Assembly (NCBI GenBank): GCA_963665235.2
Contig: CAXXLX010000001.1
Span: 2,304,001 to 2,368,000, forward strand
Origin: Candidatus Poribacteria bacterium
Lineage (GTDB): Bacteria > Poribacteria > WGA-4E > WGA-3G
Direction: 5' to 3'
Length of the DNA stretch: 64,000 bases
Of the stretch, positions 24,919 to 29,165 are shown one piece after another. The notes under the pieces were generated by a model. That model was not told the origin of the DNA. It made no database searches and saw only the letters and a program-made list of their open reading frames with translations. Each line of letters starts with the position of its first letter. Position 1 is the stretch's first letter. The position numbers and the translations under genes were made by a program.

Positions 24919-26868
24919 ATGAAGTTCGCAAAATACGTTTCCCTTTTAGGTGTCATGCTGTTCAGTTTTGTGCAGGTAGGGTGTTTTACCGGCAACGCGA
25001 CCCGCACCGCTGAGAAATTCGTTGAAGCGAAGGATTACCACAGGGCTGTTGAGGTTTACCAAAGTATCATTGATACCGAACCGGACAGCACAGAAGCCCG
25101 GAAAGCGCAACTCGCTATCGGTGAACTCTATGTCGAACAGATGAATCAACCGGCCGCAGGAATTAAAATGTATGAAGCACTTATTGCCAATGCACCGGAA
25201 AGCGAAGAGGCGGCTGAAGCACACTACGAACTCGGCATGCACTATTACCGTGAAAAGGATTTTGACAACGCACAAACCCAATTTGACTTAATTGTCAACC
25301 AATTTCCGAACTTAGAATTGAGCCATAAGGCGCAGCTGATGTTGGCAAAAAGCTATGAGGAGGCAAAAAACTTTGAAAAAGCTGTAGAAGTTTTCGATAA
25401 TTTTGCTCACCGTAATCCGCAAAGTCAACGTGCAGCGCAAGCCCTCGCGAACAAGGCAAGAATCCAGCGCGAACGTCTCAAAAATGAGGAGGACGCGAAA
25501 CGGACATATCAATTTATCGTGAAGAAATATGGCAAAAATGATGACGCAAAATCCGAGGTTGACAAGGCAAAGGAGCGGCTGCAAGACCTCAACGCTTCTA
25601 TACCTGAACCGGAAAACCCAGAGGCAACGCAGGAAGGCCGCGCTATGAAGAGACGCGAAGAGCGGAGGGAACTTAATAAACCCCGCAGCGGCGGTGAACG
25701 GAGCCCCGCCCTAGGCAAAACTGACGTGGCAGTAGAGGACTCCGGCTTCGGCGTTAGTCCAGAGCAGCTCATGCAACAATTTGGTGGAGAAAGCGGGGTC
25801 ACTACCGACGCGGAAGGCACCTATTATGACGCGGAACTGATGATTGCCAAATTTTTCTACGGCAATGAAGAATATCAGAAAGCAGGCGCGTTATTCTACG
25901 ATGGCATCGCACGCGCGAAAGCCGCAGGTGCAAAAATCGATCCGTATAACTACCTCAATCTCTCTATTTGCTACCGAAAACTCGGCATGCATAAACGCGC
26001 AAAAGAGGTACTCCGAAAAGCATCAAGCCGAGATGGACGCATCATCGTCGCTATTATTAACACCGGCCGGAACCAATATAGTGAGGCTACCAGCGAGGAA
26101 GACTATGAAAAAGCGATAGAAACCTACAGCTCTGTTATCGGATTCAACCGCAACAAGGACTCTGAACTCCATTGGTTAGTCGGGTTGGCGTATAAAAAAC
26201 TTGGGAACGTCGAAAAAGAGCGAGAATCTTTTGAGCGCGCTATCGCCGCGGATACCACGAATACCGATGCGTTGCAAAGTCTTGCTGAAGCCCTCAACGA
26301 ACGGGTCAAGGACCGGAAGGCTGCTGTCATTTTCAAGGACCTAATAGACCAGCGGGGAGATAACTATATCGGTTCAAAGACGCTTGGTGACCTCTGCTAT
26401 AAATATGGAAACTATGCACAGGCACGGGTTAAATACAATGCCGCCGCGAGAACCGCCAAACGACTCCTAGGAAAGGCGAAAAATAAAGCGGAGGAACGGG
26501 TGCTAACGAGTCAATACGTTTATGCCACTATCCGCACCGCACAAGCTGTTTACAAACTTGGACAGGAAGACGCTGCGCAAACCGCTGTTGACACCTTAGC
26601 GACGGAATACCCTGAACATGCGTTAATTCCTTACGGAAGAGGTGAACTCGCTGCCCTCAAAGGCGATGAAACCACAGCAATCGCCGCTTTCAAAGAAGCT
26701 ATTGAGAAAGATGTGAAGTCTGATATTCCGGTCATAGCCCTCGGCGATTTTTATCTCTCTCGAGGCTACAATGACGATGCAATCGCTTTGTGGGAAGGGT
26801 ACTTGGAGCAGAATAAGTATAACACTACAGTGCGGGCTCGCCTTAAAAAGCTAAAGAGCACGAACTGA
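24919..26868 (+). CDS. TPR-repeat lipoprotein (BamD/CpoB-like repeats)
   Basis: Lipobox-like QVGC; many TPR helices with a charged linker. Confidence 0.85.
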   Translation: MKFAKYVSLLGVMLFSFVQVGCFTGNATRTAEKFVEAKDYHRAVEVYQSIIDTEPDSTEARKAQLAIGELYVEQMNQPAAGIKMYEALIANAPESEEAAEAHYELGMHYYREKDFDNAQTQFDLIVNQFPNLELSHKAQLMLAKSYEEAKNFEKAVEVFDNFAHRNPQSQRAAQALANKARIQRERLKNEEDAKRTYQFIVKKYGKNDDAKSEVDKAKERLQDLNASIPEPENPEATQEGRAMKRREERRELNKPRSGGERSPALGKTDVAVEDSGFGVSPEQLMQQFGGESGVTTDAEGTYYDAELMIAKFFYGNEEYQKAGALFYDGIARAKAAGAKIDPYNYLNLSICYRKLGMHKRAKEVLRKASSRDGRIIVAIINTGRNQYSEATSEEDYEKAIETYSSVIGFNRNKDSELHWLVGLAYKKLGNVEKERESFERAIAADTTNTDALQSLAEALNERVKDRKAAVIFKDLIDQRGDNYIGSKTLGDLCYKYGNYAQARVKYNAAARTAKRLLGKAKNKAEERVLTSQYVYATIRTAQAVYKLGQEDAAQTAVDTLATEYPEHALIPYGRGELAALKGDETTAIAAFKEAIEKDVKSDIPVIALGDFYLSRGYNDDAIALWEGYLEQNKYNTTVRARLKKLKSTN

Positions 26869-27032
26869 TAAGGACAACCCTGTTTGATACGTTTTCGGTT
26901 CTCGGTTATTCGGGAACTGAAAACGTTATCCGGGCTTCCGCAGCAGACTCCAACGTTTTCGTTTTGGGATTCGGGTACAGGGCAGTGGCTAAAAATAAAT
27001 TTGACTTTTGCTTATAAATGTGATATACTATA

Positions 27033-27115
27033 TACATCTGCTACTTGAGAGGTGTAAACGTCAGCACCCTTGCTGACGCTCTCAACCGTTCTTTTACACG
27101 GATTGTGCAGATGTA
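27033..27115 (+). ncRNA. candidate small structured RNA (multi-stem with pseudoknot)
   Basis: Follows TTGACT-N17-TATACT; stems TACATCTGC/GCAGATGTA, TTGAGAG/CTCTCAA, CGTCAGCA/TGCTGACG; GTGTAAA complementary to TTTACAC. Confidence 0.6.
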
Positions 27116-27165
27116 GCAAACCATGGACACTACCAAAAACGGAACGGACACTTTTTTGAAAAAAG

Positions 27166-27194
27166 TTGACATTTAGTGATTAGTTCGGTATAAT
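27166..27194 (+). promoter_or_regulatory. consensus sigma70 promoter
   Basis: TTGACA-N17-TATAAT. Confidence 0.85.
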
Positions 27195-27199
27195 TTACG

Positions 27200-27752
27200 A
27201 TGGTATGGTTCAATCAGTGGAGTAAACAATTGATGCAAGCCTAAGGCGTTGTGCATTTGGGTGTGCAGAAAACTGCTTAAAATTCCTGCCAGCCACTATC
27301 ATACGGACTCCAAAAAACACCTCCAAATCCTGTTTTAATGAGATACGTGCCCTTCTGGTCCGTGTCGGGGGTGCCTGCTGACTTTTTAGTAGTATGCGGG
27401 ATACTGTGAAATCTACCCTACAATGTTTAAAACCTTCAGCAAATATCGTTTCTTTGCTGTGCTCACACCAGCATGAGAACCCGGTGTTTTATTCATATAT
27501 CAATGCCAGTTCCTGTGGTATTTTGCGGGGCTGTCAAATTCACGAGTCATTAATTGCCCTGTTACGTTCAAGCGTTGGCAGGAAATCGGACACACTTTGC
27601 TTTGTGATAAGGTGTTCTTAGCGTTGCGATGTTGGCGCAAGTAAAAAATACGAACAATTGCAGTTAGAAGAAATAAGCGCGTAGTTTTTTGCTATGTGTT
27701 TTCGGAGATAACCCTGCACTGCTGTTTATCAGTAGTGTTGCAAACCATGCGG
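27200..27752 (+). ncRNA. candidate large structured RNA / rho leader
   Basis: Long-range helices 27203-27210/27743-27750 and 27283-27293/27574-27584, many local hairpins, no credible ORF. Confidence 0.55.
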
Positions 27753-27815
27753 ACACAGATAAATATAGTTTTATCTATGAATGTATAGGTTAAATTTATC
27801 GGAGTATGAAAAGCT

Positions 27816-29165
27816 ATGGAGAGCTTGGACATAGGCACGCTCCAGGAAATGGAGATGTCGGACTTGATTACCCTGGCAGAGACCAGCGGTATAGAAGATG
27901 GCGGTGGACTTCCTAAAGATGAGCTGATTATGCGGATTCTTGAAGAAATCGCTGAACAAAATATACCCCTTTACGGAAAAGGCGTGTTGCAAATATTAGA
28001 TGACCGGGAGCAGAATTACGGATTCCTCCGGTCCCCCCGCTCTAATTATTTGCAGAGCAACGAAGACATTTATGTTTCCTCGTCACAAATCCGTTTGTTC
28101 GGATTACAGACCGGGCATGTCGTTGAAGGATTAGTTCGGCCCCCTAAGAAGTCAGAAAGCAAAACGGAGCGATACTTCGCCCTGTTACAGATTGAAAAAG
28201 TTAACGGTGAGCCGCCTCAAGAGGTCAAAATGCGAACCCCTTTCGACAATCTCAGGCCTGTCTACCCGTATGAACAACTCAAATTGGAACATAACCCATC
28301 TGAATTTGGCACGCGTATCATTGACCTGATGTCCCCCATCGGTAAAGGGCAGCGTGGATTAATTGTGGCACCGCCCTACAGTGGAAAAACAACCCTCCTA
28401 AAGAACATCGCGCACGGAATAGAAGCAAATCACCCTGAAGTTTCGCTTATCTTCCTGCTCATCGATGAACGCCCGGAGGAGGTCACTGATGTCACACGTT
28501 CCGTTAAAGGTGAGGTTATCAGTTCCACATTTGACGAGCACCCCGAACGGCATATACAGGTCGCTGACATGGCAATTGAGAAAGCGAAACGTTGGGTCGA
28601 GTGTGGAAAGGATGTCGTTATCTTATTGGATAGCATGACACGTCTCGCCAGAGCACACAATATGGTCGCACCTTCCACCGGAAAAACGTTGACCGGCGGG
28701 TTAGATGCGATGGCGTTTATCGAACCTCGCCAATTCTGTGGGGCTGCCCGAAAATTTGAGAACGGCGGGAGCTTAACAATTATTGCCTCTGTACTCGTTG
28801 ATACCGAAAGTCGTTCGGATACGTACATCTATGAAGAATTCAAAGGGACTGCCAACATGGAACTCCACATGGACCGTGCCTTGTTAGAGCAGCAGATCTT
28901 CCCGCCTATTAATATTGAAAAATCGAAGACGCGTCGGGAAGAACTCCTATTAGAACCGGACGTTCTTAACAAGGTTTGGGTACTACGGAAAGTCATCAAC
29001 CAAATGAGCTTATCCGATGCCATGGAACTCCTTATCAAGCAGTTCGGAAAGGCATCGACAAATGAGGAATTCCTTGAGCTTATGGCTGATGCCGGACAAG
29101 TGAGTGTTGCCCGGCCCCAGAAAACCAAAAGTCCCAGGCGGGAAACACGGCCTGTCGCGCCTTAG
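27816..29165 (+). CDS. rho: transcription termination factor Rho
   Basis: YGFLR, DIYVS.SQIR, PIGKGQRGLIVAPP..GKT, DERPEEVTD, EEFKGT. Confidence 0.98.
   Translation: MESLDIGTLQEMEMSDLITLAETSGIEDGGGLPKDELIMRILEEIAEQNIPLYGKGVLQILDDREQNYGFLRSPRSNYLQSNEDIYVSSSQIRLFGLQTGHVVEGLVRPPKKSESKTERYFALLQIEKVNGEPPQEVKMRTPFDNLRPVYPYEQLKLEHNPSEFGTRIIDLMSPIGKGQRGLIVAPPYSGKTTLLKNIAHGIEANHPEVSLIFLLIDERPEEVTDVTRSVKGEVISSTFDEHPERHIQVADMAIEKAKRWVECGKDVVILLDSMTRLARAHNMVAPSTGKTLTGGLDAMAFIEPRQFCGAARKFENGGSLTIIASVLVDTESRSDTYIYEEFKGTANMELHMDRALLEQQIFPPINIEKSKTRREELLLEPDVLNKVWVLRKVINQMSLSDAMELLIKQFGKASTNEEFLELMADAGQVSVARPQKTKSPRRETRPVAP

Follow-up and report, generated by a model that had tools for sequence, protein, structure and literature searches.

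What kind of RNA leads into rho in this poribacterium? In the window, a stretch of 64,000 nt from a 5.3-Mb genome of sponge-symbiont Poribacteria, some 615 nt lie between a strong promoter and the rho start codon, and the initial annotation of this DNA proposed that they hold a novel structured RNA of about 550 nt or an elaborate attenuator of rho. Altogether, our analysis favors a model whereby the interval has two parts of different origin, a native leader through which Rho probably regulates its own synthesis and, downstream of it, a tolerated right-end remnant of an IS605-family TnpB element (Table 1). We regard this two-part reading as probable. The apparent new large RNA is thereby resolved into two understood parts, and a false lead is avoided.

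Table 1 Features of the rho upstream region and related elements discussed in the text
Feature	Position	Strand	Details
Left-end-like remnant of another multi-copy element	26965-27120	+	Separate from the leader
rho promoter	27151-27194	+	A/T-rich stretch TTTTTTGAAAAAAG, then TTGACA-N17-TATAAT at 27166-27194
Native untranslated rho leader	27201-27650	+	3' limit approximate, 27610-27676
Proposed closing helix	27203-27210 / 27743-27750	+	GTATGGTT / AACCATGC
C-rich, G-poor block, candidate rut site	27271-27330	+	C 21, G 5; AAATTCCTGCC..TACGGAC(C/T)CC
Proposed domain-enclosing helix	27283-27293 / 27574-27584	+	TTCCTGCCAGC / GTTGGCAGGAA
Short hairpin ACACC/GGTGT	27465-27487	+	Compensatory changes, CUCCGG/CCGGAG in orthologues (RNAalifold, consensus helices 10 and 11)
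Hairpin, GACAG..CUGUC with inner helix in orthologues	27505-27535	+	Also returned by RNAalifold; one outer pair broken in the window
IS605-family TnpB right-end remnant (omega-RNA/reRNA scaffold)	27677-27802	+	End ...TTTATCGG at 27802
Hairpins of the remnant	27677-27699, 27716-27738, 27743-27791	+	The last encloses 27757-27776
Shine-Dalgarno GGAG, spacer and rho ATG	27801-27818	+	GGAG 27801-27804; ATG 27816
rho	27816-29165	+	449 aa; NF006886, 583 bits
IS605-family copies elsewhere in the genome	contig C1, near 872139, 1029449, 1045748, 1059967 and 1079876; also C3:3383		

Promoter and untranslated leader of rho in Poribacteria

The rho gene is followed by rpmE, prfA and prmC, with matches to the L31 and PrfA models as well, and the TPR-repeat gene upstream of its leader ends at 26868. 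The perfect TTGACA-N17-TATAAT reported upstream of rho was borne out, with 12 of 12 consensus positions matched, and transcription is predicted to start near 27201. The same promoter recurs at rho throughout the group. AAAAAAnCTTGAC..N17..TATAAT lies upstream of rho at all 18 loci from the window's genus and the nearest genus, and 42 of 44 further Poribacteria loci usable from public contigs carry it, the two without it being cut contigs; the type common to Poribacteria is an A-rich stretch, TTGAC, 17-19 nt and TATAAT. A sigma-54 site, and a promoter inside the transposon remnant (TTGCAA with a 20-nt spacer), were considered and rejected on sequence reading.

The description of the following ~615 nt as free of credible coding sequence also stands, and a long untranslated leader thus separates promoter and start codon. 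A single plus-strand ORF (27394-27621, 75 aa) occurs between the promoter and the rho ATG. We rejected it as a gene, given that it matches no NCBIfam family and has no counterpart in orthologous leaders; no ORF is conserved among 28 such leaders, whose longest ORFs share neither start nor frame nor sequence. By eye on leader alignment A5, we likewise rejected the possibility of a conserved upstream ORF spanning the C-rich block: the window lacks the ATG of the candidate, and the reading frame varies with how long the A-run is. The plus strand of the leader contains no site resembling an intrinsic terminator.

We located rho in 40 of 41 family genomes and, using the promoter pattern, extracted 63 distinct Poribacteria rho leaders of 150-1140 nt. 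The leader in the window measures 615 nt, and those of the nearest genus ~410-440 nt. A long rho leader is therefore a trait of the group, but neither its length nor the greater part of its sequence is constant. Positions 27147-27566 align with positions -492 to -87 of the nearest-genus leaders at 59-61% identity; this homology required sensitive blastn, a plain DNA search of 61 relatives having matched the promoter, the start region and a 125-nt repeat only. The leader lengths fall into classes of ~170, 300, 410-440, 500-560 and 620-710 nt, with a further one at 1140 nt, which suggests further insertions or deletions in the rho leaders of other Poribacteria.

A candidate Rho loading site and the control of rho

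The best-conserved part of the leader is the C-rich, G-poor block, which coincides with a C>G bubble and sits ~70-130 nt after the predicted transcription start. Its most conserved stretch reads AAATTCCTGCCAAC..TTTCATACGGACCCCAAAA in orthologues and corresponds to 27281-27320 in the window. A 60-nt window in which C exceeds G by at least 10 is present in 62 of the 63 Poribacteria leaders, compared with 4.5% of genome windows, and with an excess of at least 12 the figures are 56 of 63 and 2.0%; the 63 leaders are related and do not represent independent trials, and we estimate the chance of an excess of at least 12 in a leader of 400-700 nt at perhaps 15-25%. By its composition, the block resembles a rut segment, for which C-richness, paucity of G and weak structure are expected, and it is thus a candidate site for Rho loading. 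The initial annotation had noted that rut sites are typically C-rich and unstructured, a description that actually suits the best-conserved block.

From this leader anatomy, and because rho is known to regulate itself elsewhere among bacteria, we infer that the native leader is a Rho-dependent autoregulatory attenuator. Autogenous regulation of rho is described for Escherichia coli, Salmonella and Caulobacter and, for Bacillus subtilis, the sole known regulation of the gene is presented as attenuation by Rho-dependent terminators within its leader (PMC11599450). In our model, a strong sigma-70-type promoter would drive a native leader of ~450 nt that is untranslated and locally folded; Rho would most likely load at the C-rich, G-poor block and, when abundant, terminate transcription before the rho coding sequence, thereby setting its own level. 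The suggestion of an attenuator controlling rho is thus plausible as far as the long leader, the promoter and the C-rich block are concerned, all of which are conserved across Poribacteria, with termination itself being the presumed step. Similarly to the autoregulatory rho leaders of E. coli, Salmonella, B. subtilis and Caulobacter, the poribacterial leader is long and untranslated, follows a vegetative promoter, includes a C-rich, G-poor segment and lacks an intrinsic terminator and, as in B. subtilis, rpmE comes next after rho (PMC11599450). Unlike those leaders, to which it has no sequence relation, it is longer and has conserved blocks shared by members of a single candidate phylum. Uncultured Poribacteria would thereby gain a candidate Rho autoregulatory leader, the conserved blocks of which are testable with purified Rho.

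An alternative model is that rho is controlled mainly by masking of its ribosome-binding site or by binding of a protein or small RNA, with Rho attenuation being absent or secondary. The argument for it begins with the near-invariant blocks among orthologous leaders, such as TACGGACCCC, the conservation of which exceeds what composition alone needs. Moreover, the consensus of 27 leaders, which has 58 pairs in 13 short helices with 84% of cells pairing (29-row alignment), includes upstream blocks paired with the region before and in the Shine-Dalgarno sequence: UUU.UCAG pairs with CUGA.GGA at the Shine-Dalgarno sequence in 82% of cells, and ACCUG with CAGGU in 86%. These modeled pairings would instead fit translational control. 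The masking helices rest mostly on invariant columns, with two of seven pairs in each changing on both sides, and in the window the transposon remnant has moved their 3' partners away and their 5' blocks differ, yet rho is intact. The small-RNA version is modeled on SraL in Salmonella, and in the rho leader of Salmonella an sRNA site is described as overlapping the putative rut site (PMC12360218); binding of a ligand finds no counterpart among the ligand-binding families of Rfam. On balance, we consider control mainly by such means unlikely and favor autoregulation by Rho.

An IS605-family right end at the rho start

The 3' part of the interval belongs to a repeat family. Six copies in the genome extend upstream into ~1.75 kb of shared sequence, and the ORF of one full copy, which ends ..MDRDLNGARGIFLRAL.., matches the Pfam families HTH_OrfB_IS605 (48 bits), OrfB_IS605 (31 bits) and Cas12f1-like_TNB (51 bits). 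The repeat therefore overlaps tnpB at its 3' end and extends as far as the right end of the element, exactly where the reRNA/omega-RNA scaffold lies; the reRNA is described as ~150 nt long, made up of the 3' end of tnpB together with the right end, with ~16 nt of flank acting as guide (PMC8612924). The consensus fold of six right ends has 38 pairs (-32.7 kcal/mol), eight of which change on both sides, and it pairs AACCATGC with GTATAGGTT inside the element. Thus, the repeat unites homology to the tnpB 3' end, full copies that encode TnpB and a conserved multi-hairpin fold. A covariance model built from six copies (R1) has 12 matches in the window's genome; among 101 family genomes, 32 have matches, and copy numbers reach 22.

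The copy at rho, 126 nt in length and directly upstream of the start codon region, is a remnant and not a complete element. By BLAST, it matches copies behind intact tnpB 3' ends in three genomes (G002, G061 and G015) with E values from 2e-24 to 3e-16, and it scores 145 bits with R1, compared with 162 bits for the best match, a copy in another genome (G011). To the left of 27677, BLAST finds no significant homology, and tnpB and the left end are therefore gone at rho: neither a left end behind the target motif nor tnpB is present. A similarity to tnpB 3' codons that can be followed by sight back to ~27610 is not significant, and the left limit of the remnant lies approximately in 27610-27676. 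In a plain DNA search, 27677-27808 recurred at two other places in the genome and also in three relatives, in none of which it lies at rho, and with R1 this genome was the only one of the 101 family genomes searched in which the element was found at rho. A weak match of 27663-27845 to the rho leader of one further genome (G027; 64% identity) was rejected as a copy of the element, since R1 places the copies of that genome elsewhere.

How the element came to lie there is suggested by a comparison of sites. The uninterrupted site in orthologues reads ..TTACTGAGG|AGTATGAAAAACTATG, the interrupted site in the window reads ..TTTATCGG|AGTATGAAAAGCTATG, and the GGAG at rho consists of the last GG of the transposon end plus flank. 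By this comparison, the element entered inside rho's GAGGAG, such that its last GG completes the GGAG; the left end and tnpB were lost later, and the remnant would now be transcribed as part of the rho leader, with its terminal GG serving the Shine-Dalgarno sequence of rho.

An insertion at this place fits the habit of the element family of occupying sites before ATG-started ORFs. In six copies with five distinct flanks (ATGAGG, AGGAGG, CGAAGG, TGAAGG and GCGAGG), the left end follows GA(G/A)GG, as it does in a copy in G061 (GAAGG); the left end of the rho subtype was found in G061 behind GAAGG, that of the G015 copy being indistinct. Right ends finish ..ATCGG, and the left end has a TTGACA-N17-TACAAT promoter of its own. 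Within 3-18 nt of 15 of 24 distinct right ends there is an ATG-started ORF of at least 60 aa, compared with 5.6% of 20,000 random positions. GA(G/A)GG is a Shine-Dalgarno-like motif, and the elements apparently insert between the Shine-Dalgarno sequence and the start codon, even at rho, which bears on how TnpB elements secure transcription of their guide RNA and on how hosts tolerate insertions. On the boldest reading, poribacterial TnpB elements would home to ribosome-binding sites, and each copy would be co-transcribed with the host gene and return a GG to the Shine-Dalgarno sequence. We found no publication naming both Poribacteria and TnpB and, among ten listed search results, none on the targeting of ribosome-binding sites by IS605 elements, a point on which supplementary target-motif lists may bear.

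Similarly to the omega-RNAs of ISDra2 and ISGst and to their protein-less derivatives (PATEs), the repeat has a scaffold of ~130-150 nt over the tnpB 3' end and right end that forms several hairpins; it occurs in many copies, its end is defined while the adjoining flank varies and, as described for IS200/IS605 elements, insertion is 3' of a short motif (PMC8612924, 10.1101/2023.03.14.532601). Unlike in ISDra2 and ISGst, the left-end motif is GA(G/A)GG and not the AT-rich TTGAT or TTAC and, unlike known elements, the copy at rho lacks the left end and tnpB and has as its host site the 5' untranslated region of a gene of the essential type.

Two more right ends of the same subtype lack tnpB, at C1:2720620-2720763 and C1:191619-191767. 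They lie 6-8 nt before the ATG of unrelated genes, one for a predicted outer-membrane-like protein of 226 aa and one for a protein of 282 aa; the copy at C1:2720620-2720763 retains ..DINGACGIFLRALGDN.., left over from the TnpB C-terminus. C1:4311975-4313432 contains two right ends of like orientation, separated by 1.3 kb, and between them, on the opposite strand, a left-end-like promoter repeat (4312917-4312968); this locus may be a nest of degraded elements.

Could the remnant have been co-opted? It might act as a stabilizing 5' structure and Shine-Dalgarno donor, or as a guide RNA for TnpB in trans, in which case the guide would be the ribosome-binding site and start of rho itself, with 27801-27818 corresponding to where an omega-RNA guide lies. 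At rho, the scaffold helices are preserved, since the three C-to-U changes in the first hairpin have produced G-U pairs, and the remnant alone folds at -43.7 kcal/mol (z -2.9); for three of three transitions to keep pairing has a chance of about 1 in 8, however. All three genome copies of the rho subtype lie 6-13 nt before start codons without tnpB, but this position follows from the target choice of the element family. Protein-less elements encoding omega-RNAs that are acted on in trans have been described (10.1101/2023.03.14.532601), whereas the tnpB-linked copies in this genome are of another subtype, 65% identical over the scaffold, and an occupied site lacks the motif required next to a target. 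We therefore consider co-option improbable. On the boldest reading mentioned above, if a TnpB of this genome binds the kept rho scaffold in trans, a transposon RNA would modulate the termination factor of the cell; we doubt this reading strongly. Instead, we take the remnant to be a tolerated scar and not a working part.

In four metatranscriptome runs from one study, contigs 95-99% like the window cover 27079-27781 and 27431-27795, and RNA-library contigs bridge 27675-27856 into rho. The scar is therefore also present in a close strain, and RNA libraries contain the leader, the scar and the rho start together; DNA may be present in these libraries, and contigs from them show cover and cannot show starts, ends or levels. 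In all four runs, contig depth is higher over the leader than over rho, as per-contig means that cannot rank the parts. The first positions of the contigs, 27078-27110, precede the predicted start; read-through from a promoter-like site at 27001-27029 (10/12, with TG), which is directed toward rho, may account for this. The left-end-like remnant around this site is represented elsewhere, with 28 further matches to 26988-27038 in the genome, and RNA-library contigs contain the same 39 nt in another context; a stable hairpin at 27033-27116 folds at -37.1 kcal/mol (z -3.8).

Large-scale and local folding of the leader

OLE, GOLLD and ROOL are large structured bacterial non-coding RNAs, and the Pseudomon-Rho motif lies upstream of rho. 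The interval is similar to the former in size range and to the latter in position; unlike OLE, GOLLD and ROOL, the leader has no Rfam match and no conserved multi-helix architecture. The idea that it forms one structured RNA of ~550 nt with long-range closing helices, whether of the OLE/GOLLD/ROOL kind or as an elaborate structured attenuator, is already largely refuted by the following observations, and we consider it extremely improbable.

The eight complementary pairs on which the idea was based are present, a base or two off their implied places; they do not go beyond chance. In the 615-nt leader, there are 77 complementary runs of at least 8 bp, with G-U allowed, compared with 75 ± 9 in 100 dinucleotide shuffles, and 95 of the 100 shuffles contain a run of at least 11. 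The proposed helices are thus what chance gives. As to the comparison with shuffled controls that had been called for, the plus strand of the leader folds no better than they do (-169.5 kcal/mol versus -161.9 ± 6.6; z -1.15), two of 20 shuffles folding as well, and the minus strand has a z of +2.05. The native 460 nt of the window have a z of +0.31. Together with 14 orthologues, they give a mean z over 15 leaders of -1.8; some orthologous leaders do fold better than shuffles, with z down to -3.65. A search of known families gave none: of 4227 Rfam models, none matches 26850-27900 even at E ≤10, and none reaches its gathering score in the whole window.

Comparison across the lineage separates long-range from local structure. 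For alignment A2, which consists of the window leader and 17 orthologous leaders from the nearest genus, RNAalifold returns 19 conserved pairs only (-9.25 kcal/mol). Helices 2-7 of the proposed fold pair in 31-43% of A2 cells versus 31-35% when the 3' partner is slid, and among the proposed helices TTGCG/CGCAA alone reaches 74%. In addition, the 3' arm of the closing helix (AACCATGC) and the helix GCACTGCTG/CAGTAGTGT lie in the transposon remnant, which is absent from the 17 orthologues, and leader length varies from 150 to 1140 nt. Lacking a thermodynamic signal, with helices at the level of the slid controls and a closing helix that depends on the remnant, a novel large structured RNA is not supported.

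What does covary are short local hairpins. On the 29-row alignment, 69 cells of the 58-pair consensus are changed on both sides compared with 30.6 in shuffles, and none of 500 shuffles is as high, the consensus having been derived from the same alignment on which it was tested. The leader is structured locally and not globally, since the convincing parts of the consensus are two or three local hairpins. Besides the hairpin at 27465-27487, these include the one at 27505-27535 (consensus helix 12), in which both partners are altered in seven of 11 pairs and pairing is kept in 83% of cells.
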